This document shows, one piece after another, positions 16,014 through 50,151 of a stretch of DNA of 64,000 bases (within the stretch, counting starts at the first letter, position 1; each line of letters starts with the position of its first letter). The notes under the pieces were generated by a model. It was given only the letters and a program-made list of their open reading frames with translations, was not told the DNA's origin and made no database searches. The position numbers were made by a program, and so were the translations under genes. The stretch lies in the NCBI GenBank assembly GCA_964560795.1, contig CAZLNX010000001.1:227-64226 (forward strand), read 5' to 3'. Source of the DNA: an uncultured Anaerolineales bacterium (lineage in GTDB: Bacteria > Chloroflexota > Anaerolineae > Anaerolineales > UBA11858).

Positions 16014-16868
16014 CTAGGCATCTTCTTTGGGTTTATGATCGCGCCAGTAGCTGATATAGCGGGTACCATAGGTATCGCGTCCCATCAGCAGATCGGTCGC
16101 CCGAATGGTGCTGGCCAGCTTGATGGGATCAGTGATAGCACAGGTAGCGCCCTCGCCCATCGCCAGCGACAAGAATGCCTGATTGACCGTGTGTCGGTCT
16201 GGCAGGCCAAAAGATACGTTGCTAGCTCCCAAGTTGATGTTGACTCCGAATTCCTTCTTCAATAATTGAACCGTTTGCAGCGTCACTGCGGCAGCATTGC
16301 TATCGGCGCCTACGGTGAGCACCAACGGATCGATGACGATATCTTCGATACCAATGCCCAGTTTAGCAGCTCGCTCGATGATCTTCTCAGCAATGGCGAC
16401 GCGCGTTTCGGCATCATTGGGAATACCATCATCGTCCATGGTCAGTCCTATCACCGAAACACCATGTTCACCGACCACAGGCAAGACAGCATTTAGTGAT
16501 TTCTCTTCGCCATTGACAGAGTTCACCAAAGGTTTTCCTGGAAGTACAGCCAAGGCTGCTGCTAAGGCCTCATGATTGGCAGAATCCAGGCACAGGGGTG
16601 TATCGACGGATTCAGCGACGATCTTAGCAACCTCGGGCAGCACGGCCACTTCGTCAAGGCCGGGCACGCCAACGTTGACATCCAGAATATCCGCCCCGGC
16701 TTCGACCTGTTTGATCGCTAAGCCACGGACATATTCATAGTCGCCTTCTTTTATCTTTCCGGCCAAGATCTTTCGTCCAGTAGGATTAATCTTCTCCCCG
16801 ATAATCACAAAGGGGGCATCATAACTGATGGTTACTTCTTGTTTCTCGCTTTTCAATATGGTTTTCAT
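16014..16868 (-). CDS. pterin-binding methyltransferase (methyl-corrinoid:tetrahydrofolate, MtgA/AcsE/MtrH-like)
   Basis: 284 aa TIM-barrel pterin-binding domain. Blocks IIGEKINPTG, GADILDVNVG, LCLDS, NSVNGE, GASNVSFGLP. Confidence 0.85.
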   Translation of the reverse strand: MKTILKSEKQEVTISYDAPFVIIGEKINPTGRKILAGKIKEGDYEYVRGLAIKQVEAGADILDVNVGVPGLDEVAVLPEVAKIVAESVDTPLCLDSANHEALAAALAVLPGKPLVNSVNGEEKSLNAVLPVVGEHGVSVIGLTMDDDGIPNDAETRVAIAEKIIERAAKLGIGIEDIVIDPLVLTVGADSNAAAVTLQTVQLLKKEFGVNINLGASNVSFGLPDRHTVNQAFLSLAMGEGATCAITDPIKLASTIRATDLLMGRDTYGTRYISYWRDHKPKEDA

Positions 16869-20548: not shown

Positions 20549-21041
20549 CGCTCACCTCCTGGATCATAGCAGCGGCATGCTTCACCGAATCGATTATCGG
20601 CGCATAACCCGTACAACGACATAAATTCCCGGCGATGGCCCGTTGAATCTCCTCACGGGTGGGGTCCGGTTTCTTTTGCAATAGTGCATAACTTGACAAC
20701 AACACCCCAGGGGTGCAGAAACCGCACTGCAAACCCCACTTCTCGGCGAAGGCTTGCTGCAAAACACCCAGCTCGCCATCGGGTGCCAGCCCTTCGACGG
20801 TTAGCAATTCCTTCCCATCTGCCTGGGGTGCCAGTACGAGACAGGAATTCACGGCCCTGCCATCCATGAGAACAACGCATGCGCCACAATCCCCCTGGCT
20901 GCAGCCATCCTTTGTTCCCGTTAATCCCAGATCTTCTCGTAAAAGGTGCAAAAGGGTCTGGTGAGGAGCAGTTGTTACCTGTTTTTGCTCTCCATTCACA
21001 GTAAATTGGATTTCTACGTCGGCCATTAATTTTTCCTTCAA
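20538..21041 (-). CDS. [2Fe-2S] small subunit of Mo hydroxylase
   Basis: 167 aa with CSQGDCGACVV and CRCTGY cysteine clusters. Confidence 0.9.
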   Translation of the reverse strand: MKEKLMADVEIQFTVNGEQKQVTTAPHQTLLHLLREDLGLTGTKDGCSQGDCGACVVLMDGRAVNSCLVLAPQADGKELLTVEGLAPDGELGVLQQAFAEKWGLQCGFCTPGVLLSSYALLQKKPDPTREEIQRAIAGNLCRCTGYAPIIDSVKHAAAMIQEVSDVQ

Positions 21042-24051: not shown

Positions 24052-25425
24052 TCAGTTAAGGCCTAGACCCATTCCAACCAGCTCATTTTTGACTTCGTCA
24101 TACATTCCCTGCCATTCAGGCTTGGGCTGGATTCTCTCGACATCATAGACCTCGTCAAAAGGCTTGCCAATCGGTTTACGCTCCAACACGGGTTCATAGT
24201 GACCGAGGAGTTGCTTCACGATTTCGTCCGCCTGGCATCTTTCCATGCCCAGCGCGGCGCGGGAAACTTCTCCGCAAATCTTTGAATCCAACCCGCTGGC
24301 ATGCTTGTGATTGACACCACTGGCAGACATACTGGACTCCACCACCGATATGCCGGAAGCCACATTTGCGATGGTCAAGGCAGCGTTTTCATAGAGAATC
24401 GACTTGGTTCCGGGCCCGCTGGCAGGTTTGTTCATCGAAGCCAGGATAAGACCTGTATTCCTGGACAGCGCCTGGAATGCTAGGCTCTGCGCCCATACTT
24501 GGGGCGTTGTAGTGCCGCAGTGCAAGTTGGGGTGCGCGGAGCTCACACTGAGGGTTGTGCCCATATAGTTTTGGTTCAGTATGATGGGTCCTGCAGTCAA
24601 GCCAATCGCCATGCCCTCTGGCCCGCCAAAGAACCCGCCGTAAATGACATTCAGGTAGGCTTCGATATTGCCGCCAATTCGGGTTGTGTGGGCTACTTTT
24701 GAGAGCAGTTCGTAATTTGTCTTGAACTCGCTGATCACCGAACAGTGATGCCAATCGCTAGGGCTGAAAGCGCCATAGGATGGGGAGATCTGCCCGGCGG
24801 CCGTAGAAGATATGGTCACACAAGCAATCCCCATCCCCGGTCTACCAGCCATGTGTACAACTTGCTTTGCCAGATCGGCTTCTTTCCAACCGCCAAGAAT
24901 TTCCCACGGGGAGCCTGCCTTGATCGGCATACCGTGGACAGAGAGTATCGATGCCGGTTCAAGCAGGTCAATGACGGGCTCCTGGGCATAGCTGAGCATC
25001 ATGGGGATAAACAATTCATCGGGAACCGATACACCCACAGCGCCTCCCGAAACCACCACGGGGCTGTCATCGTCGGGCACACGCGCCCTCAGTGTAACAG
25101 CATCGTATCCCTCACCGATCACGGCCTCGCTAGGACAAAAATGAATGCCCTGCTCATACTCCTGGCGAGACCAGGCAATTCTACGGCTGGTATCCTGGCA
25201 GAACATACCTACTTCAACGGCAAATTCCATCCCAGCTTCGAACAGGCGGTCCGCCATATCATCGTCGCTGGAAACGATCGTATTTCTATCAAAGTGGATG
25301 CCATAGTCCTTAATCAGCCTTTTTACCGTTGAGCGGATAAGCTGAGCATCAAACTCTTTTTCTTCGATCAACGGCCCAGTTTCAGCCCGGCGCAGGATTT
25401 CTGGCAGTCTGCCTCTGTGCTTCAT
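24052..25425 (-). CDS. MttB-superfamily methyltransferase paralog 2 (subfamily A)
   Basis: The track ORF runs to 25470. ATG at 25425 (MKHRGRLPEILRRAETGP) aligns with the N-termini of paralogs 1, 6 and 8 and has AAGGAAG upstream. Confidence 0.85.
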   Translation of the reverse strand: MKHRGRLPEILRRAETGPLIEEKEFDAQLIRSTVKRLIKDYGIHFDRNTIVSSDDDMADRLFEAGMEFAVEVGMFCQDTSRRIAWSRQEYEQGIHFCPSEAVIGEGYDAVTLRARVPDDDSPVVVSGGAVGVSVPDELFIPMMLSYAQEPVIDLLEPASILSVHGMPIKAGSPWEILGGWKEADLAKQVVHMAGRPGMGIACVTISSTAAGQISPSYGAFSPSDWHHCSVISEFKTNYELLSKVAHTTRIGGNIEAYLNVIYGGFFGGPEGMAIGLTAGPIILNQNYMGTTLSVSSAHPNLHCGTTTPQVWAQSLAFQALSRNTGLILASMNKPASGPGTKSILYENAALTIANVASGISVVESSMSASGVNHKHASGLDSKICGEVSRAALGMERCQADEIVKQLLGHYEPVLERKPIGKPFDEVYDVERIQPKPEWQGMYDEVKNELVGMGLGLN

Positions 25426-25548
25426 AAATTCTTCCTTTTTTTCAAGTGACTGCAATCGGCGAGAGGCCAAACGTATCGCCTGGCCTGATCGCCTATTGCA
25501 ATTTTCGTATCATGTTAGCTTTATCAATTATTGATAATGTGATCTTTC

Positions 25549-26937
25549 CTACAGCGGCATACCTAAGTCAATGGCTTCTTGCTTGACTTCATCATACATG
25601 GCATGCCACTCAGGTTTGGCTTCGAATTTTTCAAGATCATAGACATCGGTGACAATCTTGCCAACATCTGGGGTCTTGATGGCGTCTTCATATTTGGGCA
25701 ATATCACCTTGGCAATTTCGTTGACTTTCTCTAACGACATCCCCGAGGCTGCACGGGCAACCTCAGCCACCCATTTGCATTCCAAAGGCGACAGATAATC
25801 ATCCAATTTACCGCCAGCAGAGCGCGGGCCGGTAGACAATGACACACCGGATGCAGAAAGCGTCGCCTGCCCTACCAAGGTTTCATACAGCAAGGTCTTT
25901 GTGCCGGGACCAGAAACCTGGTTGGCGATGCCCTGGGTAAGGATACTGGTATTGCGGCTCAACGCTTGATGGACAACCGACAATGCCCAGATACCTTCCC
26001 GATTGACGTTGGAAAGGTAGCGGATATCATAAAGCTCACCACCGCCTACATCAGCCAGCAAAATAGGATACTGCAATAATCCTGCAGCAATACTCGACAA
26101 TGCCGCGCCTTCGGGTGGGCCGGGCATACCACCGATCATCCCTGGTGAACCGGCAAAGATTATCCCGCCCACATTCAACGTGTGCACCACTTTATGCAGC
26201 GTCTGATAGTTGACCTTCAACTCCGAAGGATAAAGAATTAATGACAAGTCTGTCGTAGGCAGCGCGCCAGCGATACCGTATCCGCCAAACTGGCCGTACT
26301 CGGTTACCGCCGAGATCTGCCCCACGCCGCCCATACCCGGTCGGCCAACTTTCGCCCGAATTTCGACATGCATCTTGGCTTGCTCAAAACCCACCAGGGT
26401 TTCTGAGGGCGCGTCGGGGATGACGTCGATGCCATGGATCGATTTCAGTGAGCCACCTTCCAGTAGATCGACTTCTTTCTGGCGGGCAATCCCTTCGGTC
26501 ACCAGCGGCCATATATCTTCAGACATGGTGATGCCCAGCGAGGCGATCATCTTCGTGGGATAGGGGTCTGAAGGCGTGCGCGCTTTGATGACCGAGGCAT
26601 CCTCCCCATAGCCCACGGTGATTTCGGACGGCGCGGCTTTGATGGCGGCATCCAGTTCCTCTTCAGAGACCTTGATAATGCGGTCGGTGGTCTCACACAA
26701 CATACCTAATTCCAGCGCGAGTTCATAGCCCGCTTTGAAAAAGCGATCCGCCAATTCACTATCCTGGTTGACAGGATTCCCCTGATCGCAGGTTTTCGCA
26801 AGATCATATTTGTTTAGCTTTTCGCGCACGGCCTTCGGAATGCGCTTGACATCCCATTCTTTGACGGTGCAGTATTCGCCGTTTTGTGAACGGTCTAAAA
26901 TTTTGATGATTTCCGGCTTATTCATTATTCTCTCCAA
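25549..26937 (-). CDS. MttB-superfamily methyltransferase paralog 3 (divergent)
   Basis: 462 aa. Blocks ELADRFFKAGYELA, GPGTKTLLYE, SPLECKWVAEVARA. Starts 3 nt after the stop of the corrinoid protein gene. Confidence 0.8.
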   Translation of the reverse strand: MERIMNKPEIIKILDRSQNGEYCTVKEWDVKRIPKAVREKLNKYDLAKTCDQGNPVNQDSELADRFFKAGYELALELGMLCETTDRIIKVSEEELDAAIKAAPSEITVGYGEDASVIKARTPSDPYPTKMIASLGITMSEDIWPLVTEGIARQKEVDLLEGGSLKSIHGIDVIPDAPSETLVGFEQAKMHVEIRAKVGRPGMGGVGQISAVTEYGQFGGYGIAGALPTTDLSLILYPSELKVNYQTLHKVVHTLNVGGIIFAGSPGMIGGMPGPPEGAALSSIAAGLLQYPILLADVGGGELYDIRYLSNVNREGIWALSVVHQALSRNTSILTQGIANQVSGPGTKTLLYETLVGQATLSASGVSLSTGPRSAGGKLDDYLSPLECKWVAEVARAASGMSLEKVNEIAKVILPKYEDAIKTPDVGKIVTDVYDLEKFEAKPEWHAMYDEVKQEAIDLGMPL

Positions 26938-27907: not shown

Positions 27908-29314
27908 CTATTCATTTTGCCAATGTGTTCTGAAGTGTGTTAATCCAAGTCGATCAAACAATTCATCCGCCCGGCCTTGGACTTCATCCATCACGGCTTG
28001 TTCGTCAACCAGGGTACATCGCCCATCTTCATATACAATTTGGCCGCCAATGATGGTCATCTGTACATCTGAGCCCCGGCCGTTATATACCAGGGTTCCG
28101 ATGGCATTGTTTAATGGTTTTTGTTGTGGTTCGTCCAAGCCGATGACAACCATATCGGCCTGTTTTCCAGGAATAAGTTGACCGGCATCGATGCCCGCAT
28201 ATCGAGCACCTCCGATGGTGGCCATTTCAAGGGCGCCATTAGCTTTGGCTTCAGTAGGATCGAGGGTATTGACTCGTTGTAACAACACAGCCGTGCGCAT
28301 CGCCAAAATCAGATCCTGATTCCCGCAACACGAACCATCGCTGCCCAATCCAACAACGGCACCGGATGATCGCAAATCTCGCAACCGCATGATGCCGGTG
28401 GCCAGATATTGATTACTGACCGGGCAATGGGCGATACCGGCATGCGCGTCACCGAGCATTTCGATATCTTTGTCAGCCAGCCAAATCGCATGGGCAAAGG
28501 TGCCATCATCAAGCAGCCCTTCCCGATGCAGCCACTCAACCTGTCCAACTCCATAATGTTCAAGATATTGCCCCTCTTCGGAATCATCCTCTGCCAGATG
28601 GGTATGCCAGCGAGCGCCGAACTCACGCGCCAGCTCTACAGCACGCATAAGCAAATCTTGCGGGTTGTAGGAAACGCACTCGGGTGTTGGCCAGACAGCC
28701 ACTTTGCTGCCAGGTGGACGCGCTTCCATGGCTGCCCTGGTTATGTCGATCTCGTCAGCGACGCTGTACATAAAGGTGCGTTCAAGATCATATCCATACG
28801 ATGCGGATATTTTTGTGGGATGGGCATACATCCCACGAGCGACCACCCCTCTCAAGCCAGTGCTCTCGATAGCATCTGCAACGGCGAGCGTGGTTTCCAG
28901 ATCGGTGGGCGCGTAATGGTTATCGATCACATAGGTAGTACCGTTACGGATGGCTTCCAAGGCACAATTGGTAACCGCGGCCACAACTTCATCGCGGGTA
29001 ACTTTATCTCCAAATGGCTGCAGTAGCTGACTTAACCATGGCCACAGTTTCATACCCTCACCAACACCACGCAGCAACGATTCAAAGAGATGATTGTGAC
29101 AATCGACAAAACCTGGGGTAATCAGTTTTCCCTGACAATCAATGCGACGCTTGGCTTGATAATCAACCAGTTCATCGGGCGTACCGACGGCCACGATCCG
29201 CTCACCGTCAATGGCAACCGTACCCGGATCCAAGACACGCCGCTCGTCATCGACGGTGATCACAATGCCACCCGTAAGCAGCAAATCACAGTGTTTTTCG
29301 TGGCCCATTTTCAT
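27908..29314 (-). CDS. amidohydrolase, MtaD/TrzA/chlorohydrolase-like deaminase
   Basis: Blocks PGFVDCHNHLFESLLRG, HTHLAEDD, HCPVSNQYL, GLGSDG. Start trimmed to ATG 29314 (or 29308) so that it follows the upstream gene's stop at 29331. Confidence 0.8.
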   Translation of the reverse strand: MKMGHEKHCDLLLTGGIVITVDDERRVLDPGTVAIDGERIVAVGTPDELVDYQAKRRIDCQGKLITPGFVDCHNHLFESLLRGVGEGMKLWPWLSQLLQPFGDKVTRDEVVAAVTNCALEAIRNGTTYVIDNHYAPTDLETTLAVADAIESTGLRGVVARGMYAHPTKISASYGYDLERTFMYSVADEIDITRAAMEARPPGSKVAVWPTPECVSYNPQDLLMRAVELAREFGARWHTHLAEDDSEEGQYLEHYGVGQVEWLHREGLLDDGTFAHAIWLADKDIEMLGDAHAGIAHCPVSNQYLATGIMRLRDLRSSGAVVGLGSDGSCCGNQDLILAMRTAVLLQRVNTLDPTEAKANGALEMATIGGARYAGIDAGQLIPGKQADMVVIGLDEPQQKPLNNAIGTLVYNGRGSDVQMTIIGGQIVYEDGRCTLVDEQAVMDEVQGRADELFDRLGLTHFRTHWQNE

Positions 29315-29330
29315 GATCACCTTTACACAC

Positions 29331-30563
29331 TCAAGATTCCCGCACAGCCTCAACCATCGCCTGGACATTCTCCGGTTTGGCTTCATCGGGGATACCGACG
29401 CTGCCATCCACAATCAAGCCTCCCTGGGGGCCGAAGAGGTCGATCAACTCTCTGACATCCTCTTTGACTTGCTCCGGGGTGCCAGTGGACAACAGTGCAG
29501 AAGAGATCCCACCCCAGAAACACTGCCGGTCCCCCATAATTTCCAGAGCCTGCTGACGGTCGATGCGATCATAATGGATAGGCACTTTGCCGCGCGGCAG
29601 CTCAGCCAGGTAGGGCAGCCTGGGGGTGTAATCCCCCTGGACATGCAGGATGGGAGTCAATCCGGCTTCGACCAGCGCCAGGATGATTTTATGAATACTG
29701 GGCCAGTAGAACTTTTTAAAATGCTCGTCAGACATGAAGCCAGCCGCGCCGCGATGCAACCAGAAGAAGACACGCGGGTTATCGATGGCTGCGGCCCAGT
29801 CAATGGCAGCCTGGATCTGCGGCTCGACATACAGATCGACTGCTGCTAAGAGTTTATCGGGGACACGGAACATATCCAGCATCACGCCGCGCATGCCGCG
29901 CAGAAAATCGGCGACCATATCGAAGGGCGGCGTGAAGTTGGCGCCATAAGAAACTGGATAGCCAAGTTCTACCATTTCTGCGAAATAATCCGCTTCTGCT
30001 TGCATAGATGCCTGGGATGCCTCAGCCAGCTTTTTGAGGGTTTCCAGCATCTCGAGTTGTTCTTCGTAGGCAAAGGCCGGACCCAGGAAAATCGGGTCGG
30101 GGCCGATGGCGAAAAATGGCTGCATATCCGCCAGAGGCTCGAGACCCGCGGTCATGCGCGGCCACAGCACCCGCATGGTGAAATCGTTGGGATTGGCCAG
30201 GAACTGATCGTATTCATCAGCCAGGAGATATTCCTTTTCAACAAACTGGAAAGTCATATCGTCCGGCAACCCACCACCGGGCCATTTATAGTGTTTGGCC
30301 CCCAAAATCGAATACCACTGGGCCGGGTACACGCCAGACTGCAGTGCAATGTCAAAATCGAAGCGCAGCAGCGATTCTTTCAGTGCTGCATAGCGCCTGG
30401 GGTGATCCAGCATGGCGTCTTTATTCGAAATTCCGGCCATCCTGGTCGAGAAGAAGTGATCCGAACTGGGGCCAATCAACACTCGATCTGGAGATTCGAG
30501 CCGTAATGCTTTATTAAAATGATCCAATCGAAATTGATAGTCTGATTGCTTTTCTTTTGTCAT
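29331..30563 (-). CDS. URO-D-family (MtaA/MtbA/O-demethylase MT-like) methyltransferase
   Basis: 410 aa. Blocks FLRGMRGVMLDMFRVPDKLLAAVD and C-terminal GGLIVDGSVGIPDEAKPENVQAMVEAV, typical of the uroporphyrinogen-decarboxylase-like methyltransferase family. Its ATG overlaps the TGA of the Mo subunit (ATGA at 30560-30563). Confidence 0.65.
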   Translation of the reverse strand: MTKEKQSDYQFRLDHFNKALRLESPDRVLIGPSSDHFFSTRMAGISNKDAMLDHPRRYAALKESLLRFDFDIALQSGVYPAQWYSILGAKHYKWPGGGLPDDMTFQFVEKEYLLADEYDQFLANPNDFTMRVLWPRMTAGLEPLADMQPFFAIGPDPIFLGPAFAYEEQLEMLETLKKLAEASQASMQAEADYFAEMVELGYPVSYGANFTPPFDMVADFLRGMRGVMLDMFRVPDKLLAAVDLYVEPQIQAAIDWAAAIDNPRVFFWLHRGAAGFMSDEHFKKFYWPSIHKIILALVEAGLTPILHVQGDYTPRLPYLAELPRGKVPIHYDRIDRQQALEIMGDRQCFWGGISSALLSTGTPEQVKEDVRELIDLFGPQGGLIVDGSVGIPDEAKPENVQAMVEAVRES

Positions 30564-32836
30564 GACGTGCTCTTAATCTCAAGGATTTCTAGAATTCGCT
30601 CGGGTGTTATAGGTAACTGTGTAACAGGCGCGCCGATGGCATCTGCCACAGCATTGGCGATCGCAGCCGGTGCAATATTCATGGGTGGCTCGCCAATCGG
30701 TTTTGCACCCAGGGGCGCTTCATCTTCTGGGAGTTCAACCACATCTGCGACGATTTGTGGAGAATCGAACGCCGTCGGTACCAAGTAACTCTCTAAGGAA
30801 GTGTTTTGGATCACCCCCTGATGGACAAGTAATTCCTCCATCAGGCTGTATCCAGAAGCCATGGTCACGGCCCCCTCGATTTGCCCCCGTACGCCTTTGG
30901 GATTAACCACCTGGCCAATATCGTGCACGGCAACCACCTTTTCAACAGTCACCTGCCCGGTTTCGATATCGACCAACACCTGAGCAATATGCGCACCGAA
31001 GTCCGCGAGATGCTCGTATCCTGTAGAACCATCAGGCAATTCGACTTCGGGATAATCCATGGCATAAAAGCCACTGGCCTGCATGGGCAGGTTCTTCTCA
31101 TAAGCCTTGGCAGCTAGATCGGCCACCTGGAGGCTTAGGCGTTCTCCTTCCGCATAAACAAAACCCTGGCGCAAATCCATTAAATCTGTATCAGCACCTG
31201 TTTCCTGAGCGGCCAGATCCAACAACACTTGACGGATCGGCTCAGCGGCTCGCAGCACCGCATTGCCTGAAAAAACGGTTGCTCGGCTGGCGACAGAGGC
31301 TCCAGCATCTGCGGCCAGCGTGGTATCCGGTTTGAAAACCTTGACATCCGCAGGCGTGATCCCTAATTGTTCTGCCACAAACTGAGCGATGACCGTATGG
31401 GCTCCCTGACCCATGTCTGCTGCGCCGGTACGCACCAAAACCGAACCATCGGGTGCCATGTTGACCGCCGCCGAGGCGTGGTCTGTGACACCGCAACCGA
31501 ATCCGATTTTATGAAATCCGGTCGCTACGCCCCACCCCCGGCGAAGATGGGCTTCTGGATGACGGGGTATTTTTTCCCGGTCCTTCCAGTTAGCAAGTTG
31601 CGCAACTTTCTCAAGACAGGCCTGCATCCCATCCCCCTTGCTTATAACGTACTGGGCCTGAAATTGCTGCCCAGTCTTCAAGCCGTTCAATAATCGCAGT
31701 TCCAGGGGATCCATTTCTAATTTTCGGGCCAGTTCATCCATCTGCCGCTCAAATGCGAAGGTGCACTGCGTGACTCCAAAACCTCGAAATGCCCCGCAGA
31801 TGGGATTATTGGTGAGCACAGTGTACGCTTCTGAGCGTGCATTGGGAACGTAATACGGACTGACTCCGTAACCCGCCATCACCATCATGACCTCTTCGCC
31901 GGCGTTGACATATGGACCGGTATCGCCAATCCCGACCATATGAACCGCGGTTAGCTTTCCATCTTTGGTCGCCCCAGTGCGATAACGGATTTTTGTCGGA
32001 TGCCGCTTGACATGAGTCCGAATTGACTCCTCTCGAGTACGCACGACTTTGACAGGCCGACCGGTTTTCTGAGCCAGCAAAGCGGCATGGATCTGGATGT
32101 GAGCCTCGTCCTTGGCCCCAAATGCCCCACCAATATGAGGCGTGATTTCACGGACCATCATTTCCGGCACACCCAATGCACGCGCAATTTGCATACGGTC
32201 ACGATGGGGGGCCTGCGCCGAGGCATAGACCACCATGGTGCCATCGAAATCGACATAGGCCACCGCCGACTCGGTCTCCAGCATGGCATGCTCTTCGAAG
32301 GGAGTGATATAGGTGTTTTCGATGATCAAATCAGCGGAATTGAAACCCGCCTCGATATCGCCCCATTCTTCCACGTGATGGCTTTGTGTATTTTCTTTGT
32401 CAGCCCAAACCCTTGTTGCATCCGGCTTCATAGCCTCTTCGGGATCGAAGACACCATTTAGGGGTTCGTACTCCACTTCGATGGCATTCAGGGCAGCCAG
32501 GGCAATTTCCTCCGTCTCTGCTGCCACCGCTGCGACCGCATCCCCGATATAGCGGACATAATCCTCAACCAAAAGAGGCTGATCGGGATACCAATACAGG
32601 TAGCTATTCTCTCCGGGGATATCCGCACCGGTCATCACAGCCGCCACCCCAGGGATGGCGCGCGCTTCTGTCACATCCAACCGCAGAATGCGGGCACAGG
32701 CATGGGGGCTGTAGAGCAATTTCCCGATTAGCATATTGGGAAATTCAAGGTCTGGGCTGTAAACCGCTTTGCCCGTAACTACATCCCGGGCACCCACGGC
32801 TGCTAGATCTTTTCCAACGACATCGAACTCTGGCAT
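30560..32836 (-). CDS. xanthine dehydrogenase-family molybdopterin-binding large subunit
   Basis: 758 aa. Block PHIGGAFGAKDE and C-terminal PIGEPP Glu context. Colinear with 18281..20548. Confidence 0.9.
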   Translation of the reverse strand: MPEFDVVGKDLAAVGARDVVTGKAVYSPDLEFPNMLIGKLLYSPHACARILRLDVTEARAIPGVAAVMTGADIPGENSYLYWYPDQPLLVEDYVRYIGDAVAAVAAETEEIALAALNAIEVEYEPLNGVFDPEEAMKPDATRVWADKENTQSHHVEEWGDIEAGFNSADLIIENTYITPFEEHAMLETESAVAYVDFDGTMVVYASAQAPHRDRMQIARALGVPEMMVREITPHIGGAFGAKDEAHIQIHAALLAQKTGRPVKVVRTREESIRTHVKRHPTKIRYRTGATKDGKLTAVHMVGIGDTGPYVNAGEEVMMVMAGYGVSPYYVPNARSEAYTVLTNNPICGAFRGFGVTQCTFAFERQMDELARKLEMDPLELRLLNGLKTGQQFQAQYVISKGDGMQACLEKVAQLANWKDREKIPRHPEAHLRRGWGVATGFHKIGFGCGVTDHASAAVNMAPDGSVLVRTGAADMGQGAHTVIAQFVAEQLGITPADVKVFKPDTTLAADAGASVASRATVFSGNAVLRAAEPIRQVLLDLAAQETGADTDLMDLRQGFVYAEGERLSLQVADLAAKAYEKNLPMQASGFYAMDYPEVELPDGSTGYEHLADFGAHIAQVLVDIETGQVTVEKVVAVHDIGQVVNPKGVRGQIEGAVTMASGYSLMEELLVHQGVIQNTSLESYLVPTAFDSPQIVADVVELPEDEAPLGAKPIGEPPMNIAPAAIANAVADAIGAPVTQLPITPERILEILEIKSTS

Positions 32837-32845
32837 AAACTCTCC

Positions 32846-33304
32846 TTATCCTTGGCGAGGCAGCACAAGATATACACCTACAACCATCAGCACCAAACCA
32901 ACAATACGAGGCAAGGTCAAAGGGACTCTTTCATAGCCACCGATTCCGATCGTGTCGATCAAAATTGCTAGAGCCATCTGGCCAAATAGCATGGCCATGT
33001 TTCCTGCAGCCACACCAATCCGGGGCATGGCATAGGCCACCCCAGCAACGGCCACAATGATCAAGACAGCCACCACCGCCGAGGCAGGCAAAACACCTTT
33101 GGTGTTATCCCAAGTCAAGGTGCCGCGCATGAAAAGAAAGACAATCGCTGGAACAGCGATCAGTGCAGCGACAGCATGCTCAAGCAAACTGGCACTGATG
33201 GCGCCAACAGAACGCCCGATAAAACCCTCAATCGAAGTCACAATACCGAATACGCCACCGCTGAGCGCGGCCACAATCACACCCATGTTAAATCGCTGAC
33301 TCAT
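32846..33304 (-). CDS. small DMT-superfamily membrane protein (DUF606/YdcZ-like half transporter)
   Basis: 152 aa with about 4-5 hydrophobic helices and a glycine-rich TM pattern. The family assignment is tentative. Confidence 0.55.
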   Translation of the reverse strand: MSQRFNMGVIVAALSGGVFGIVTSIEGFIGRSVGAISASLLEHAVAALIAVPAIVFLFMRGTLTWDNTKGVLPASAVVAVLIIVAVAGVAYAMPRIGVAAGNMAMLFGQMALAILIDTIGIGGYERVPLTLPRIVGLVLMVVGVYLVLPRQG

Positions 33305-33384
33305 TTGAATCTCCTTTGCCAGTCATGACGTACCGATTTAGAGATATGAACAGGTTACAAGTTCAAACCTCTCAGAAGCCAAAC

Positions 33385-34059
33385 TTAGAGCTTTCCCAGC
33401 AGCATCTTGCATTTTTCAACGCCATCGGCAGCAGAGCTGCCGTAGGCATTGGCGCCCATCTCTTCGGTGATATCTGGGGTGGTAGCTGCGCCGCCGATGA
33501 TCACGGCGAATTTCTCGCGGATACTCTTGCCAACCAGCATGTCACCCACATCCTTCATATAGGGCAAGCAAGTGGTCAGCAGTGCAGACATGCCGATGAT
33601 GTCAACATTCTCCTGCTCTGCGCGGGCGATGATGTCCGATGGGGAGACATTGGTGCCCATGTCGATCACGTCGAATCCGTTGACCTTGAGCATCAAGCCG
33701 ACCATATTCTTGCCGATATCGTGCAAATCGCCCTGGACAGTTGCCAGAAGAACTTTTCCTAAGGACATACTGGCACCGCCTTGAGCACCCGCCACAGCAG
33801 GGTTGATCACTTCGGTGTTGACCTTCTCAACAGTGTCCGCGGCGGTGACCATCTCGGGCAGGAAGATATCCAGGGTCTCGAAACGCTTGCCGACATCTTG
33901 CAGAGAGGGAGCGATGCAGTTCTCGAAGAACTCCACCGGGGTAGCGCCACCATCCAATGTCTCGCGCGCCATAGTAACGGCGGCATCTTCATCGCCAGCC
34001 AACATAAATTCAATAAATTTCGGTTGCAGGGTTTCCCAGTTACTCATAGCTTTCTCCAT
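33385..34059 (-). CDS. corrinoid (B12-binding) methyl-carrier protein 2
   Basis: 224 aa with GDLHDIGKNMV (DxHxxG), SALLTT and IIGGA. Confidence 0.9.
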   Translation of the reverse strand: MEKAMSNWETLQPKFIEFMLAGDEDAAVTMARETLDGGATPVEFFENCIAPSLQDVGKRFETLDIFLPEMVTAADTVEKVNTEVINPAVAGAQGGASMSLGKVLLATVQGDLHDIGKNMVGLMLKVNGFDVIDMGTNVSPSDIIARAEQENVDIIGMSALLTTCLPYMKDVGDMLVGKSIREKFAVIIGGAATTPDITEEMGANAYGSSAADGVEKCKMLLGKL

Positions 34060-34080
34060 TTAATTTCTAGGTTTATTTTG

Positions 34081-34174
34081 ATCACGAATGAAGACGAATT
34101 TTTCGAATACCATGAATTCCTATAAAATATTATTCCTATTCGTACCATTGGTGATATTCGTTTTCATTCGTGAT
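34081..34174. repeat. R1 palindromic element (phased CGAAT / ATTCG words), copy a
   Basis: Outer arms ATCACGAATGAAGACGAAT (34081-34099) and ATTCGTTTTCATTCGTGAT (34156-34174) are reverse complements with one mismatch. (C/T)GAAT words sit at 34085, 34095, 34104 and 34113, mirrored on the right arm. Confidence 0.85.
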
Positions 34175-34177
34175 TTT

Positions 34178-34651
34178 TTATATATTCATCTCAGCAGCGG
34201 TTGCTTCGATGGCTTCGGTGATTTCATGGTAGCCAGTACAGCGACACAAATTTCCAGCCACAGCTGCTTTGATCTCAGCCTGGGTGGGCTCTGGATTCTT
34301 CATCAGTAGCGCATAGGCCGACATCAACATCCCGGCGGTGCAATAGCCGCATTGGAATGCCCACTTATCGATGAAATTCTGCTGCAATGGGTGCAGCTTA
34401 CCAGCCTCTTCAAGACCCTCAACCGTCATCAGCTCAGCACCATCGGCCTGGGGAGCCAGGACCAAACAGGAATTGACTGCTTCTCCGTCCATTAGGATCA
34501 CGCAGGCTCCACAATCTCCCTGGCCGCAGGCCTCTTTGGCACCTTTTAATTTGAGATCATCGCGCAGCACGCTGAGCAAGGTGCGGCTAGGTTCGGTTTC
34601 GATCGCAACCGGGTTACCATTCACAGCAAAACGCACAGTGCTTTTTGCCAT
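34178..34651 (-). CDS. [2Fe-2S] small subunit of Mo hydroxylase
   Basis: 157 aa with CGQGDCGACVI and CRCTGY clusters. Starts immediately after the FAD subunit stop. Confidence 0.9.
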   Translation of the reverse strand: MAKSTVRFAVNGNPVAIETEPSRTLLSVLRDDLKLKGAKEACGQGDCGACVILMDGEAVNSCLVLAPQADGAELMTVEGLEEAGKLHPLQQNFIDKWAFQCGYCTAGMLMSAYALLMKNPEPTQAEIKAAVAGNLCRCTGYHEITEAIEATAAEMNI

Positions 34652-35521
34652 CTACACCCCCTCCTCGATCTGCTTCCAGGCCGCAGCCAAAGCCCTGCGG
34701 GTCAGCACACTGACCATTTTCGCCCGGTACTCCCCGCTAGCGCGAATATCTGAAATAGGCGAAGCTTCTGTTCTGGCAACATTTCCAGCCTCGATGAAAA
34801 CTTCAACACTCGGGGATTGCCCCATGAGCACTGCCTCCGCTTTGACAGCGCGGATTGGTGTGGGTGCAACGGACCCTAAGGCGATCCTGGCCTGGGGTAT
34901 TTTTCCTGATTCGTCCAGCGTCAGCCGGGCAGCGGCGCTCACGACAGCTATCGCCATGGCCCTGCGCTTGCCTAACTTGATAAAGGCCGATGATGTGTTT
35001 TTTGGAGCGAACGGGATGCGAATTTCGGTCAGGATCTCGTCGGCTGCCAGAACTGTGGACCCTGGGCCTGTGAAGAAATCCGCCAGGGGCACATCACGTT
35101 GAGTGTCGGCTTTCGCCAGAACAATCACAGCATCATAGACCAACAGCGGCGGTGCCAAATCTGCCGCAGGTGAAGCATTGACCAGGTTGCCGCCTACCGT
35201 CCCACGATTGCGGATTGGAGGGCCAGCAATATCCCAGGCGGCTTCGATCAGCGCGGGACAGTGCTCCGCCAACAATTCGGATTCCAGGACTTCGGTATGG
35301 GTGGTACTGGCTCCGAGGTGAATCCCGTCTCCAAGCATTTCAATGCCACCCAAACCGAGCAGTCGTAAATCGACCAGCAGAGAAGGTTCGATCATCCTGG
35401 AGCGCATGCGCGGGATCAGGTCCGTACCCCCAGCAATGATCTGCACCCCTTCAGCTTGTTTTCCCAAGGTTTTCAATGCTTCAGATAAAGATTGTGGCGC
35501 AAGATAATCAGGTTTGTTCAT
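34652..35521 (-). CDS. FAD-binding medium subunit of Mo hydroxylase (CoxM/XdhB-like)
   Basis: 289 aa. Blocks IIAGGTDLIP and GTVGGNLVNASPAAD, plus a CO-dehydrogenase flavoprotein C-terminal-like tail. Confidence 0.85.
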   Translation of the reverse strand: MNKPDYLAPQSLSEALKTLGKQAEGVQIIAGGTDLIPRMRSRMIEPSLLVDLRLLGLGGIEMLGDGIHLGASTTHTEVLESELLAEHCPALIEAAWDIAGPPIRNRGTVGGNLVNASPAADLAPPLLVYDAVIVLAKADTQRDVPLADFFTGPGSTVLAADEILTEIRIPFAPKNTSSAFIKLGKRRAMAIAVVSAAARLTLDESGKIPQARIALGSVAPTPIRAVKAEAVLMGQSPSVEVFIEAGNVARTEASPISDIRASGEYRAKMVSVLTRRALAAAWKQIEEGV

Positions 35522-35539: not shown

Positions 35540-36919
35540 TCAGAGTACGAGTCCAAGTTCTTTTAATTCCTTGATGACTTCTTCATAGACGGCCTGCCAT
35601 TCCGGGTCAGGTTCCAGGGTATCCAGGTTGTAGGTTTCACGGAAATGCTTGCCAATATCTGCCGTGGGTATTTTTTCGGCATATTTGGCAACCAACTTTT
35701 GAACCAAGGCATTTCCCTCAGTACGGCTCATGCCCTCAACAGCATGGGCTACCTGGGCGCAGAAGCGCGCTTCCAATGGTGAAGTGTGCCCCATATTGCG
35801 TCCGGTGGCCGATTGCACCGACTTGATATAATCCACCCCGGAAGTGACACCGACAATGGCCATGGTAGCAACTTCATAGAGGATTTCCTTCACGCCAGGG
35901 CCATGAGCCGGGCGGATGTGAATACCATTCAGTAGATGGGTATTGCGGGCCAGGGCCTGGAAGCTGAGCGCCTGGGCTGCCAGCATATCCGGATGCGTAT
36001 CGCAGCTCAGATGAGCATGGCTGGGTCCGGCGTTGACGGTATCGCCGAACAGGCAGGCTCGCAGCATGATACACCCGGCAGCATTGCCAATAGCTACGCC
36101 AGCCTTGCCTCCCAGATAACCGCCGTAAATCGGGTCGCAGAAGGTGTGCGCCACGGATCCGGTCTGAAAGAAATGGGTCGCCCGGGTCAGGTCGGCATAG
36201 GATACTTTCAACTCGCTGACAAAAGAGGCGTGATGCCAATCGCTGCGCCGATAGGCGCCATAGCTGGTAGCTGCCAACTCGATGATCTCACTGCCCGAAG
36301 TGGCTGCGGCCCCGATGCATATATCCGGCCTCCCAGCGCGTGCCACAGCCGCCCGTGCCAGGTCGGCCTCGCGTTTGGCGGCCACCGCCTCCCAAGGGGA
36401 TTGAATGCGGATGGTACGTCCCAACGCAGTGGGAATGGAGGGCGGCTCGATAATATCCAGCAGGCGTTCTTTGGCATAAGCTTCCACCATGGCGCCGAAG
36501 AGTTCTTCTTCGATCAGGGTGCCGTAGGCCCCGCCAAGGATAGTGACTCGCGCCGCTTCTTCCGGTTTGCGGAACTTGATGACCACCTGATCAGCACCCT
36601 CACCGACAGACAACGCATCGGGAGCAGAATCAACCGCCTTCTGGAGTTCATCCTGGCTCCAGACCATCTGGCGCTTGGTGTTAAGGCAGAGCACCCCGCT
36701 CTCCAGAGCCAATTCCCAACCGGCCTGAAATAAGCGATCAGCCAGATCATCATCGGAAGGGATCAGCACTTCATCATCCCAGGTGATATCGTATTTTGAA
36801 ATTAATTCTTTAACTTTGGCCCCGATATACTGTCGATCCCAATCCTTCTCATCGATGATGGGTCCCGTATCAGCCTTCTCCAGAACGGATGCCATATATT
36901 CAAAATCATTTTTTTCCAT
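35540..36919 (-). CDS. MttB-superfamily methyltransferase paralog 4 (subfamily B)
   Basis: 459 aa. Blocks KADTGPIIDEKDWD, DDDLADRLFQAG, SDWHHASFVSELKVSY, GPGVKEILYE, SPLEARFCAQVAHA. Confidence 0.85.
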   Translation of the reverse strand: MEKNDFEYMASVLEKADTGPIIDEKDWDRQYIGAKVKELISKYDITWDDEVLIPSDDDLADRLFQAGWELALESGVLCLNTKRQMVWSQDELQKAVDSAPDALSVGEGADQVVIKFRKPEEAARVTILGGAYGTLIEEELFGAMVEAYAKERLLDIIEPPSIPTALGRTIRIQSPWEAVAAKREADLARAAVARAGRPDICIGAAATSGSEIIELAATSYGAYRRSDWHHASFVSELKVSYADLTRATHFFQTGSVAHTFCDPIYGGYLGGKAGVAIGNAAGCIMLRACLFGDTVNAGPSHAHLSCDTHPDMLAAQALSFQALARNTHLLNGIHIRPAHGPGVKEILYEVATMAIVGVTSGVDYIKSVQSATGRNMGHTSPLEARFCAQVAHAVEGMSRTEGNALVQKLVAKYAEKIPTADIGKHFRETYNLDTLEPDPEWQAVYEEVIKELKELGLVL

Positions 36920-37049: not shown

Positions 37050-38426
37050 TCAACCTAATACATGATCTTCCGGAACGAGCTTTTCATAACGCTCCCAAAA
37101 AGAGGGGACAATCTCCCGGGACCTGGCCTTGATTTCATCTTCATCTAGGGTGGTTAAGATGCGATCTTTCATCAAAACCTGGCCGTTGACAATCGTGGTG
37201 GTGATCATGGATTCGTTGAAGCCAAAGACAAAGTGTCCAGCCAAGTTTTCGACCGTCATCGGCGTTGTCGGTTTGTAATCGACAAAAATCAGATCCGCTA
37301 AAGCCCCTGGCTCGATGACACCCACCCGGCCATCAGGGAAATAGGCTGAAGCCAGGGCAGCGTTGTTGTGTATCGCCATCTGCAGTAATTGATCGCCGGG
37401 CAAACGCCGGCTGTCGCGGTGTTTGATCTTCTGCAAGAGATAAGCAGCTTCTGCTTCGCGCCACATGGTATTCGTCAGGCCATCATTTCCCAGGCAAACG
37501 GGTATACCAGCCCGTAAATAGGATTCGACTTCGGCAATACCGTCAGCGGCATTCTGATTATTGCGCGGCTGATGGCTGACCCAAGAATTGCTCTCGGCAA
37601 TTAGCTGCACTTCGCGTGCATCCAGGTGAATGGCATGGGCCAGAATGGATTTATCCCCAAGAATACCGTGCTTCAGCAAACGATCCACAGAGCGTATCCC
37701 GGACATAGCCTGGCTGCGGACCTGGTCATATTCGTGTTCTGCCACATGCAGGTGGAATCCAGTTCCCTCGGGCACAGCCTCCCGGCAGGCAGCCAGGGTT
37801 TCTTCGGAAACCGTCATGGGCGCGTGAATGCCAAAATTGGCTGCCACACGTCCCTCAGAAATCTGATCCTGGTTGCAGCGGCGCACGAAACGGGCATTCT
37901 CAGCAATTCCAGCCTTGGCGCGTTCGGGGCCATCGCGGTCGGTGACTTCAAAACACAACACTGAGCGCAGTCCGGATTCGTCCATCGCTTCGGCAATCAC
38001 ATCCAAAACACCATCGATAAAGTTGGGGGAAGAATGATGATCGAACAAGGTGGTTGTACCGTGCTTGATAGCATCAATGGCTCCCACCAACGCGGAATAG
38101 CGCACATCTTCCTCGCTGAGCGCTTTATCAAAGGGCCACCATAACTTATGTAAGATAGTGGGCAACGTAATCGGCGCGTCACCCGGAACCGATATTCCGA
38201 CCGCGAATGCACTGTAATAATGACCATGAGCGTTGATATTTCCGGGCATCACATATTGGCCGCGGGCGTCCATCCATTCTTCACCCGAATATCGTTTGGC
38301 CAATTCCGTAGAGGGACCAATTTCAGTGATCATTCCATTGCGAATAAACACAGCCTGATTCTCTATAATCTGGTTAGGGGTTCCCCAGGTGATCAAGTGT
38401 GCATTCGTAATTAACATAACTATCAA
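37050..38426 (-). CDS. ssnA: amidohydrolase, SsnA-like putative aminohydrolase
   Basis: 458 aa. Blocks PGNINAHGHYYSAF, LWWPFDKALSEEDV, KHGTTTLFDHHSSP, CFEVTDRDG and HLHVAEHEYD follow the E. coli SsnA pattern as I recall it. Confidence 0.7.
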   Translation of the reverse strand: MIVMLITNAHLITWGTPNQIIENQAVFIRNGMITEIGPSTELAKRYSGEEWMDARGQYVMPGNINAHGHYYSAFAVGISVPGDAPITLPTILHKLWWPFDKALSEEDVRYSALVGAIDAIKHGTTTLFDHHSSPNFIDGVLDVIAEAMDESGLRSVLCFEVTDRDGPERAKAGIAENARFVRRCNQDQISEGRVAANFGIHAPMTVSEETLAACREAVPEGTGFHLHVAEHEYDQVRSQAMSGIRSVDRLLKHGILGDKSILAHAIHLDAREVQLIAESNSWVSHQPRNNQNAADGIAEVESYLRAGIPVCLGNDGLTNTMWREAEAAYLLQKIKHRDSRRLPGDQLLQMAIHNNAALASAYFPDGRVGVIEPGALADLIFVDYKPTTPMTVENLAGHFVFGFNESMITTTIVNGQVLMKDRILTTLDEDEIKARSREIVPSFWERYEKLVPEDHVLG

Positions 38427-38439
38427 TCCTTTAAAGCCA

Positions 38440-39606
38440 CTAAACTTCTATCTGGCTCAATCGTTGGGCAATGCCCATGAATCCACTCACTGAACGCACC
38501 AGTTCAGGGATTTCAATATATTCATCGGTTACGTGAGCCACAAGGACAGAACCTGGCCCAAAAACAATTGTGGGGATACCCCGCTCTCCAGCACTGCCAG
38601 ACCCATTGGTGCAATAAGGTGTGCCATAGGTGATCGGGGGGATACCCGCCCCTTCTAAACCTTCCAGGCTGAGCCTGACCCAATCCGAATCAGGCTCTAC
38701 GGCCCAGGCGGGGTGGAAATCTTTTCGTGTAATGTGTACCCCCGTATAGCAATCAAACGAGAGCTCATCATAGTCAACATCCCAGCCTGTAAGATCATCG
38801 AGAGCCTTGCGATGGATCTCAAGCACTGTTTCGCGTGTCTCACCACGCACCATACGCCGATCAAAAATGACCTGGCACTCATAGGGTATAGTCGAGAAGC
38901 TCGGGTTTGGTTTGGAACTAATATGGATGGGTTCCATCACGCTGCGCCCCAATAGAGGATCTTCAACAAGGGGGATCTGGCGCACCCGGCGAATTACTTC
39001 AACAGCTTTCTCGATGGCATTCTCGCCGACTTCAGGTGAGGAGCTGTGGGCGGATTTCCCTTTGACAGAAAAGATCACCCGGCAGCGACCTTTGTGGCCA
39101 ATCCCAAGGCGACAGTCGGTCGGCTCTCCAATCACAACGCCATCGGGTTGGACGGCATCTAAGACACTTTCTAAAGCAGCACCTTCCAGAAGCTCTTCCC
39201 CAACTGTGCCCACTGCGTAAACTTCACCTGAGAATGAGTCGCGCTGCAAAGCCGCCAAAGCGATTGTAAAAGCAGCCAAGCTGCCCCGATCATCTGTTGA
39301 TCCGCGCCCCCAGAGCTTTCCATCAACGACTTCACCCCCAAAGGGATCATGAACCCAGGCATCTCGGTCACCCACCTCGACAGTATCCATATGGGCATCG
39401 AAGACAAGTTTGGGACCAGGTTTACTCCCCACGCGCCGGCCAATTACATTGCCAACTTCATCACGCCAGACATCATCGAAGCCCAAGGCGCGCATCTTGT
39501 TAAGGGCAACGTCAGCTACGGCTTCCAAATCGCCAGCCAGGCCGGGTGCCCGCACCAATTCCTGTAAGTATTCAACAACTTCGTTTTCGATGTCCATAGT
39601 AGGCAT
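38440..39606 (-). CDS. M20-family metallohydrolase (ArgE/DapE/YgeY-like)
   Basis: Blocks FDAHMDTV, GRGSTDDRG and GEE, plus a dimerisation-domain layout. Start trimmed to ATG 39606 (MPTMDIEN), after the upstream stop at 39612. Confidence 0.8.
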   Translation of the reverse strand: MPTMDIENEVVEYLQELVRAPGLAGDLEAVADVALNKMRALGFDDVWRDEVGNVIGRRVGSKPGPKLVFDAHMDTVEVGDRDAWVHDPFGGEVVDGKLWGRGSTDDRGSLAAFTIALAALQRDSFSGEVYAVGTVGEELLEGAALESVLDAVQPDGVVIGEPTDCRLGIGHKGRCRVIFSVKGKSAHSSSPEVGENAIEKAVEVIRRVRQIPLVEDPLLGRSVMEPIHISSKPNPSFSTIPYECQVIFDRRMVRGETRETVLEIHRKALDDLTGWDVDYDELSFDCYTGVHITRKDFHPAWAVEPDSDWVRLSLEGLEGAGIPPITYGTPYCTNGSGSAGERGIPTIVFGPGSVLVAHVTDEYIEIPELVRSVSGFMGIAQRLSQIEV

Positions 39607-39611
39607 AAAAT

Positions 39612-48721: not shown

Positions 48722-48734
48722 ACTTGTATCTCCT

Positions 48735-50126: not shown

Positions 50127-50151
50127 TGCTAGTCTCCTTTTATTGTTCCGA

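Follow-up and report, generated by a model that had tools for sequence, protein, structure and literature searches.

A 64-kb stretch of DNA from an uncultured Anaerolineales bacterium (contig CAZLNX010000001.1), called the window in this paper, was found to carry what is probably one conserved catabolic operon, a module of a larger island. In this region, the genes of a molybdenum hydroxylase (a FAD-binding subunit; a [2Fe-2S] subunit, FeS; and a molybdopterin-binding large subunit, Mo) are interrupted by the genes of a corrinoid protein (CoP), named CoP2, and of a small YdcZ-type membrane protein of the DMT family, and the Mo gene is followed by that of a URO-D-family protein, hereafter UROD. 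Sequence comparison indicates that UROD is very probably a zinc-free, UroD-fold substrate:corrinoid methyltransferase (MT-I) of the CdmB/O-demethylase clade. The best combined explanation, which we favor with moderate confidence, is that the operon would demethylate and hydroxylate a methylated N-heterocycle by way of a corrinoid protein. The open reading frames (ORFs) of the window were assigned to families with Pfam, with NCBIfam equivalog models and their cut-offs, and by sequence comparison with the PDB (Table 1). The seven ORFs named in a first-pass annotation of this region were recovered at exactly the same coordinates, all on the minus strand and with strong Pfam support.

Identity of the URO-D-family protein

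CdmB of Acetobacterium dehalogenans (PDB 9rui) was the only strong PDB sequence match of UROD, with an E-value of 9e-33 for the single sequence. When a UROD profile built from 30 family sequences was run with PDB sequences as targets, CdmB was detected at E 2e-55, uroporphyrinogen decarboxylase (UroD) at about 9e-6 and MtaA at 0.013, the values of the latter two being about 50 orders of magnitude poorer. The alignment with CdmB spans UROD residues 4-407 and is nearly full length, the N-terminal extensions included. CdmB is the chloromethane:corrinoid methyltransferase (MT-I) of the CdmB/CdmC/CdmA system, described in 2026, and its clade within the UroD superfamily includes the O-demethylase MT-I enzymes MtvB, OdmB, VdmB and MtoB (PMC13222342). 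CdmB was the sole MT-I reference compared with UROD in this study.

The first-pass annotation had seen no His/Cys zinc motif in UROD, and this observation holds. In the profile alignment, both cysteine positions of MtaA are replaced: the zinc ligand segment 'LHiCG' of MtaA corresponds to 'LHVQG' in UROD (Cys to Gln309), and the segment 'pgCGi' corresponds to 'GSVGI' (Cys to Val). The His-x-Cys of MtaA gives way in UROD to a Q-G-D/E motif, and the equivalent in CdmB is 'FQGEH'. The crystal structure of CdmB contains no zinc (PMC13222342), and membership of this clade explains why the zinc motif is absent from UROD. It had also been proposed that the protein could be either a substrate:corrinoid or a corrinoid:acceptor methyltransferase. 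The first function agrees with CdmB as the nearest match, while the second is unlikely, as there is no zinc site.

The invariant polar residues of the UROD family are Gln106, Glu117, Tyr118, Asp215, Arg222 and His270. CdmB has a gap in the segment that contains His270, together with Arg271 in the family consensus, and this segment may hint at a polar substrate which needs protonation of the leaving group, rather than a haloalkane.

Conservation of the gene order

The window proteins were mapped by tblastn onto 85 loci, of which 84 were non-redundant and 77 had enough upstream sequence. Database relatives of UROD number more than 1,100, and a genome scan confirmed at least 576 related stretches. 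The relatives listed come from metagenome-assembled genomes (MAGs) of Anaerolineales, Dehalococcoidia, Thermodesulfobacteriota and Actinomycetota, and the closest genome among the matches listed was an uncultured Anaerolineales MAG with 79% UROD identity. A CoP gene lies at most 400 nt upstream of the UROD homolog in 37 of the 77 loci, many loci are multi-copy CoP-UROD arrays, and a pterin-binding methylcorrinoid:acceptor methyltransferase (MT-II) is present at 11 of the 84 non-redundant loci. Such linkage to CoP genes and such arrays are what marks a family of substrate:corrinoid methyltransferases. Near UROD, Mo-hydroxylase genes were found in only 6 of the 84 loci, which indicates that only a subclade has the link to a hydroxylase.

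The relatives of the module were divided into four types. In type A (UROD identity 71-79%; loci L001/L002, L003, L087 and L006), the order is (MtmB)1-3-FAD-FeS-CoP-DMT-Mo-UROD-aminohydrolase-CoP-MtmB. In type B (58-60%; L086 and the P0052 locus), it is GntR-CoP-MtmB(-MtmB)-UROD-DMT-FAD-FeS::Mo (fused)-Pterin_bind-Mo-amidohydrolase, and in type C (65%; L005) it is CoP-DMT-GntR-UROD-CoP-MtmB-amidohydrolase-FeS-Mo-MtmB. In type D (54%; L088), a hydroxylase is absent near UROD. The order FAD-FeS-CoP-DMT-Mo-UROD, for which a comparative check had been advised, therefore recurs at four independent Anaerolineales loci, with identities of 71-78% for Mo, 80-84% for CoP, 68-70% for DMT and 64-77% for the aminohydrolase. 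The module opens with an MtmB gene, which is separated by 18 nt from the FAD subunit gene that follows. Orthologs of this MtmB gene (76-80% identical) precede the FAD gene in L001, L003 and L006, and aminohydrolase orthologs directly follow UROD in the same three loci. The most stable partner of UROD is the YdcZ-type DMT gene, which is 49-68% identical across types A-C. Orthologs of CoP2 (71-84% identical) are always next to the DMT gene and accompany UROD in types A and C.

The genes of type A are also closely packed. By called genes in L001, L003 and L087, the gaps are 23-32 nt between FeS and CoP, 42-45 nt between CoP and DMT and 15-16 nt between DMT and Mo; the FeS-CoP gap of L006 is about 88 nt between tblastn matches. 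Between Mo and UROD, the distance is +17 nt in L003 and L087, +8 in L001, -4 in the window and -11 in L006. Tight packing of Mo and UROD is thus conserved and the ATGA overlap itself is not. Of the two features whose loss from homologous loci was to speak against the pairing, the corrinoid/DMT insertion is kept and the ATGA junction is not.

The overlap of the Mo stop codon with the UROD start codon (ATGA, 30560-30563) and a second ATGA junction at 18281-18284 were both read directly from the sequence. The second, which had been cited as an independent overlap of a hydroxylase with a methyltransferase, does exist, but the overlapped gene is an MtmB homolog and not a URO-D gene. The argument that such overlaps speak for functional pairing is weakened, since 4-nt overlaps are usual operon packing. 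A third same-strand 4-nt overlap lies at 56043-56046 between ABC-transporter genes, which means that an ATGA overlap by itself indicates co-transcription and nothing more. The broader regularity is of a different kind: in the window, L003, L005 and L039, an MtmB gene comes immediately after a Mo large-subunit gene, and an overlap of the two genes was seen in the first three of these. 'Mo large subunit, then MT-I' is a recurring rule of these islands. The proposed pairing of hydroxylase and methyltransferase stands to this extent; in distant relatives, the partner is another paralog and not the ortholog. On the evidence of gene order, we are fairly confident that the functional coupling of UROD with a Mo-hydroxylase is real.

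The molybdenum hydroxylase

The set of FAD, two [2Fe-2S] and molybdenum cofactor (MoCo) subunits is complete, as in xanthine dehydrogenase or purine hydroxylase, and both cysteine motifs are visible in the FeS subunit. In an alignment with solved structures, the Mo subunit retains the catalytic Glu of GEPP opposite Glu730 of R. capsulatus. Val takes the place of R. capsulatus Arg310 (bovine Arg880), which we take to be the residue orienting xanthine in xanthine oxidoreductases, and at the position of Glu232 (bovine Glu802) there is Asp, followed by Glu. No NCBIfam model passed its cut-off with the Mo subunit (PucD, 580 bits against 784; the alpha subunit of 4-hydroxybenzoyl-CoA reductase (4-HBCR), 544 against 995; XdhA, 540 against 780), and the best model for the FAD subunit, XdhB, reached 230 bits against 310. 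As judged from these residues, the Mo enzyme appears to be a genuine, catalytically intact hydroxylase, and its pocket does not appear to be of the xanthine type. A canonical xanthine dehydrogenase was rejected, as the xanthine-binding Arg is replaced by Val and the equivalog scores stay below the cut-offs.

Two other hydroxylases were observed in the window. A second module, FeS-Mo-MtmB, lies at 18281-21041 with overlapping junctions and no adjoining FAD-subunit gene, and it is kept in L003 (14861-18967) and L005 (14877-19070); this hydroxylase either borrows the FAD subunit 34652-35521 or works independently of FAD. In the third (5701-8469 and 4091-5556 region), the FeS and Mo domains are fused (922 aa). 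Its neighbors are the XdhC maturation factor and a small deaminase of the cytidine/guanine type, and it shares only 36% identity with the two other Mo subunits of the window.

Proposed pathway

A scheme can be proposed in which a methylated N-heteroaromatic compound (O-methyl, possibly N- or S-methyl), most plausibly purine-like, would enter the cell through the YdcZ protein. UROD would position the methyl group of the substrate for attack by the Co(I) of the corrinoid protein, and the resulting methyl-Co(III) would be discharged to tetrahydrofolate by the pterin-binding MT-II. Before or after demethylation, the Mo enzyme would hydroxylate the heterocycle; an oxo group beside the methylated atom would improve the ring as a leaving group. 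The downstream aminohydrolase would then strip ring substituents hydrolytically, and its product would feed the SsnA/YgeY-type genes of purine-ring degradation just upstream.

The pterin-binding MT-II is the only MT-II in the window. Its orthologs are 69-78% identical in L003 and L005, and it is presumed to be the shared outlet for methyl groups. In CoP2, the motifs DxHxxG (which reads GDLHDIG), SxL and GG are visible, and the nearest NCBIfam models, all below their cut-offs, are methylamine and glycine-betaine corrinoid proteins. The YdcZ-type DMT protein is hydrophobic throughout and is a putative transporter of substrate or product.

The most likely start of the aminohydrolase, as read directly from the sequence, is the ATG at 29314, behind an AGGTGAT Shine-Dalgarno sequence and 17 nt after the UROD stop codon. 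The listed ORF (27908-29413, TTG start) is over-extended into the upstream gene, and the same applies to the ORF 48735-50279 (TTG). For the aminohydrolase, the best NCBIfam models, none of which reached its cut-off, are 5'-deoxyadenosine deaminase, 8-oxoguanine deaminase and N-ethylammeline chlorohydrolase, and the nearest PDB sequences are AtzA, 8-oxoguanine deaminase/AtzB, MTA/SAH deaminase, an isoxanthopterin-type deaminase and TrzN. The characterized aminohydrolases among these matches displace amino, alkylamino, chloro, methoxy or methylthio groups on purine, pterin or s-triazine rings. An SsnA aminohydrolase and a YgeY M20-type hydrolase, encoded immediately upstream of the module (37050-39681), score above their equivalog cut-offs; we take these to be markers of the selenium-linked cluster for anaerobic purine/urate degradation in E. 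coli and gut anaerobes.

That the substrate of UROD is N-heterocyclic and purine-like has, in our estimate, slightly less than an even chance. This estimate is based on the loss of the xanthine Arg, on the AtzA/TrzN/8-oxoguanine-deaminase-type neighbor and on the SsnA/YgeY, Bmp/PnrA, XdhC and deaminase genes. A still wider reading, which is offered as a doubtful but possible one, is that methylated N-heterocycles are broken down by an anaerobic, corrinoid-dependent pathway encoded in these Anaerolineales islands, the first of its kind, in which each Mo-hydroxylase would be paired, possibly physically, with a downstream MT-I. The substrates may then include O6- or N7-methylguanine, methylxanthines and methoxypurines, and the paired MT-I may be of the UroD type or of the non-pyrrolysine MtmB type. 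If this is true, both MT-I families gain a new substrate class and the expansion of non-pyrrolysine MtmB is explained. Corrinoid-dependent demethylases supply the C1 metabolism of anaerobes with methyl groups from ethers, amines and halomethanes, and their recognized substrates are aryl methyl ethers, simple and quaternary amines, methanol, methylthiols and halomethanes.

Alternative explanations

Several observations weigh against the operon as proposed here. The coupling of UROD and hydroxylase is read from gene order alone. The exact gene order is limited to relatives with at least 71% UROD identity, and shared ancestry explains part of it. The type B hydroxylases are 38-43% identical to the window Mo subunit, against 54% between the two stand-alone Mo subunits of the window; they are non-orthologous, which means that UROD is linked to 'a Mo-hydroxylase' and not to this ortholog. 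No hydroxylase adjoins UROD in L005 and L088. Moreover, CoP2 is only 28-35% identical to the corrinoid proteins that adjoin UROD homologs elsewhere, and the corrinoid protein 52594-53226 is 48% identical to the UROD-adjacent one of L004, against 34% for CoP2. The cognate carrier of UROD may be other than CoP2, which is a candidate by its position. The 118-nt FeS-to-CoP gap, with its hairpin, could split two transcripts in this genome. A RACo-type activator was searched for in the 64-kb window and none was found, so that its gene must be elsewhere in this genome; RACo is present in L003 (20614-21221), directly after the pterin-binding MT-II. A conserved 232-aa protein of L003 was likewise searched for in the window and not found.

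The strongest alternative is one that we consider unlikely. The modules may be independent cassettes that are co-located and maybe co-regulated, with UROD and the Mo enzyme acting on different molecules; the CoP-DMT pair would have come between FeS and Mo through rearrangement, in an island that is frequently reshuffled and serves a broad nutrient class. The variation of gene order between types A, B, C and D agrees with this, as do the extra MtmB gene between CoP and DMT in L006, the different hydroxylase paralog beside UROD in L086 and the loci L005 and L088 named above. In addition, the wider UROD family (at most 52% identity) occurs in plain CoP-UROD arrays, and Mo genes are as rare as described. 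However, junctions as tight as -11 to +17 nt and the full order of seven genes have survived about 25-30% protein divergence, UROD still adjoins a FAD-containing hydroxylase after rearrangement (L086 and the P0052 locus), and in L003, L005, L039 and the window itself an MT-I gene comes immediately after a Mo large-subunit gene.

It is quite improbable that UROD O-demethylates a methoxylated aromatic acid from which the Mo enzyme then removes the hydroxyl group reductively. The best PDB sequence match of the Mo subunit is indeed the alpha subunit of 4-HBCR (1rm6, E 3.5e-112), and the UROD clade includes aryl methyl ether O-demethylases (PMC13222342). The scores against the reductase models are nevertheless far below the cut-offs (the 4-HBCR alpha value given above, and 119 bits against 405 for the beta subunit, HcrB). 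The FAD subunit (289 aa) has a single Cys and lacks the [4Fe-4S] insertion of the beta subunit that defines 4-HBCR, which excludes a reductase of this type. Among the ORFs of the window that were scanned, none was found to encode a CoA ligase or a part of the benzoyl-CoA pathway, and the genomic context consists of aminohydrolases and SsnA/YgeY. The assignment of the enzyme as 4-HBCR was rejected on the missing insertion and the HcrA and HcrB scores.

It is more improbable still that UROD is an MtaA/MtbA-like MT-II, which would unload methyl groups collected by MtmB proteins onto a thiol or another acceptor. The AlphaFold2 model of UROD (predicted local distance difference test 94.3, predicted template modeling (TM) score 0.90) has the UroD/MtaA fold, and its best Foldseek matches in the PDB, at E 4e-9, were MtaA (4ay7/4ay8, TM 0.61-0.75) and UroD. 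The Foldseek library predates the release of 9rui, and the first rank of MtaA there is consequently no evidence for an MT-II function. The best NCBIfam matches are methylcobalamin:coenzyme M methyltransferase models, but these matches are weak (34-54 bits against cut-offs of 235-600). The individual family models gave 46 bits against 235 (TIGR01463), 34 against 400 (MtaA) and 28 against 600 (MtbA), and no NCBIfam model, those for HemE and MtaA/CmuA included, came near its cut-off with UROD. Against this function there are also the loss of the HxCxnC zinc site, the marginal MtaA profile match beside that of CdmB, and the pterin-binding MT-II that the window already contains. The MtaA-type zinc MT-II was rejected because of the lost zinc cysteines and these family scores.

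A UroD-type decarboxylase acting on a carboxylated heterocycle from the hydroxylase pathway is hardly credible: the Pfam family is URO-D and uroporphyrinogen decarboxylases are among the structural matches, but the HemE model TIGR01464 reaches 26.7 bits against a cut-off of 303 and covers residues 273-409 only, UroD sequences align to the C-terminal half only (at E 1e-5 or poorer), and the family is linked to corrinoid-protein genes genome-wide. By the same partial and weak HemE match, a true uroporphyrinogen decarboxylase, which the first-pass annotation had named as the finding that would overturn its proposal, was rejected.

Gene content of the island and the palindromic element

Table 1. 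Features of the window discussed in the text (positions in nt; MT-I and MT-II as defined in the text)
Feature	Position	Strand	Evidence
MtmB-family methyltransferase, non-pyrrolysine, putative MT-I	35540..36919	-	PF05369, 309 bits
FAD-binding subunit, Mo-hydroxylase	34652..35521	-	FAD_binding_5 + CO_deh_flav_C (E 1e-49)
[2Fe-2S] subunit (FeS), Mo-hydroxylase	34178..34651	-	Fer2 + Fer2_2 (E 1e-32); abuts FAD gene
Palindrome, imperfect, 94 nt	34081..34174		Within the 118-nt FeS-to-CoP gap
Corrinoid (cobalamin-binding) carrier protein, CoP2	33385..34059	-	B12-binding_2 + B12-binding
DMT membrane protein, YdcZ-type, 152 aa	32846..33304	-	DMT_YdcZ, PF04657, E 5e-17
Molybdopterin-binding large subunit (Mo)	30560..32836	-	Ald_Xan_dh_C + MoCoBD_1 + MoCoBD_2 (E down to 5e-78)
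UROD, 410 aa, probable UroD-fold methyltransferase	29331..30563	-	URO-D Pfam, E 2.5e-18, 66.6 bits, residues 187-409 only
Aminohydrolase, ATZ/TRZ / 8-oxoguanine-deaminase-type	27908..29314	-	Amidohydro_1
Pterin-binding methylcorrinoid:tetrahydrofolate methyltransferase (MT-II)	16014..16868	-	Pterin_bind, E 1e-28
Complete MtmB-family paralogs, first four	16911-18284, 24052-25470, 25549-26937, 35540-36919		PF05369
Complete MtmB-family paralogs, next four	40759-42150, 45881-47269, 47327-48757, 48735-50279		PF05369
Complete MtmB-family paralogs, last three	51068-52441, 60113-61546, 62216-63640		PF05369

The island extends over about 16.0-64 kb and contains 11 complete non-pyrrolysine MtmB paralogs, four corrinoid proteins and many aminohydrolases. 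The window as a whole holds three Mo-hydroxylases, the XdhC maturation factor, a cytidine/guanine-type deaminase and one pterin-binding MT-II, and also two GntR/UTRA regulators and a Bmp/PnrA-type ABC transporter. None of the eleven complete MtmB paralogs has an in-frame stop, and a partial twelfth lies near 63817-64000 at the 3' edge. The gene 35540..36919 had been labeled an MttB paralog; Pfam assigned it to MtmB, as it did the other complete paralogs of the window, and for this protein gave no match to PF06253 (MttB); the label has to be changed. Its protein aligns at full length with M. barkeri MtmB1 (1l2q, E 2e-59), and Pyl202 is replaced by Gly; this was the one paralog in which the pyrrolysine position was checked.

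Two further observations were made in the window. A Na+-translocating decarboxylase set at 11754-15200, made up of a carboxyltransferase, a biotin carrier and an OAD_beta membrane subunit, could conserve energy from a dicarboxylate or acyl-CoA of ring degradation. Furthermore, a luciferase-like oxidoreductase (possibly F420/FMN-dependent; 39612-40631) and an FMN reductase (61565-62143) are located among the methyltransferase genes of what is presumed to be an anaerobe.

The palindromic element that had been noticed between the FeS and corrinoid genes is present. Its arms (34081-34117 and 34138-34174) are built from ACGAAT/ATTCGT units, and its RNA fold has an energy of -26.6 kcal/mol (z = -4.15) with no T-run after it. 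A second copy (53290-53392) is also located upstream of a corrinoid-protein gene (52594-53226), the copies being about 94-103 nt long, and a 19-nt arm occurs four times in the window against 0.05 expected. An Rfam gathering scan of the whole window found no RNA family, and the palindrome matches no known riboswitch or RNA. A search for the arm in 88 related loci gave one unrelated match, the element being absent from relatives, and a metagenome-wide scan with a 17-base arm gave single chance-like matches and one contig with two (same strand, 247 nt apart); nothing in these scans supports a dispersed mobile element. By its distribution, the palindrome appears to be a later, genome-specific addition. 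A scar of the CoP-DMT insertion was rejected, as relatives without the palindrome keep the insertion. The element could be an operator array for a GntR/UTRA regulator or an mRNA-stability hairpin. In a promoter and terminator consensus scan of 27.5-37.5 kb, the counts did not exceed the shuffle expectation, and the scan was uninformative on operon breaks.

Comparison with known systems

Neither the three-component scheme of corrinoid demethylation nor the MT-I clade of CdmB and the O-demethylases is new. With CdmBCA of Acetobacterium dehalogenans, the present system shares the near-full-length alignment, the Q-G-D/E motif, the absence of a zinc site and the scheme of MT-I, corrinoid protein and pterin-binding MT-II. 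The relation is distant (E 9e-33), however, and the His270/Arg271 segment of UROD is gapped in CdmB. In contrast to the simple BCA cluster, UROD is embedded in the operon of a Mo-hydroxylase, together with a YdcZ transporter and an aminohydrolase.

O-demethylase genes typically occur as CoP-MT-I pairs and in multi-copy arrays, some with an MT-II and some lacking it, and the relatives of UROD are arranged in the same way. MtvB, OdmB, VdmB and MtoB belong to the same MT-I clade of the UroD superfamily according to the CdmB paper (PMC13222342), through which alone they are set beside UROD here. They differ in that the context of UROD points to N-heterocycles and not to lignin-type aromatics.

The hydroxylase resembles PucCDE/XdhABC and nicotinate dehydrogenase in its FAD, 2Fe-2S and MoCo subunits and in the GEPP Glu, and PucD and XdhA are among its best-scoring models. 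It differs from PucCDE/XdhABC in scores that stay below the cut-offs, in the change of bovine Arg880 to Val and in subunit genes which are interrupted by corrinoid and transporter genes. MtqB, a tetramethylammonium/choline methyltransferase, was reported in 2026 as the first non-pyrrolysine MtmB homolog with a demonstrated function, and almost all other such homologs still have no assigned function (PMC13044021). The window paralogs are likewise non-pyrrolysine MtmB-family proteins associated with corrinoid proteins, but they are bacterial and lie beside Mo-hydroxylases and aminohydrolases, not in a quaternary-amine context.

We know of no enzymes for the anaerobic demethylation of N-methyl heterocycles such as caffeine, and the operon is a concrete, testable candidate gene set for this reaction. 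In a sediment study, anaerobic N-demethylation of caffeine was seen and the genes were not identified, and the O-demethylation genes of bacterial MAGs in the same study relate to naproxen (bioRxiv 10.64898/2026.01.06.697959). Our literature search found no paper that links MtmB or UroD-type methyltransferases with xanthine dehydrogenase, amidohydrolase or purine, and no O-demethylase embedded in a Mo-hydroxylase operon. No description was found of a Mo-hydroxylase operon in which an MT-I, its carrier and a YdcZ transporter are conserved, with purine/triazine-type aminohydrolases and an expanded set of non-pyrrolysine MtmB paralogs as neighbors, and this is the new feature. The content of the operon suggests an undescribed anaerobic route for methylated nitrogen-ring compounds, for example modified purines, and points to the abundant uncultured Anaerolineales as scavengers of methyl groups.

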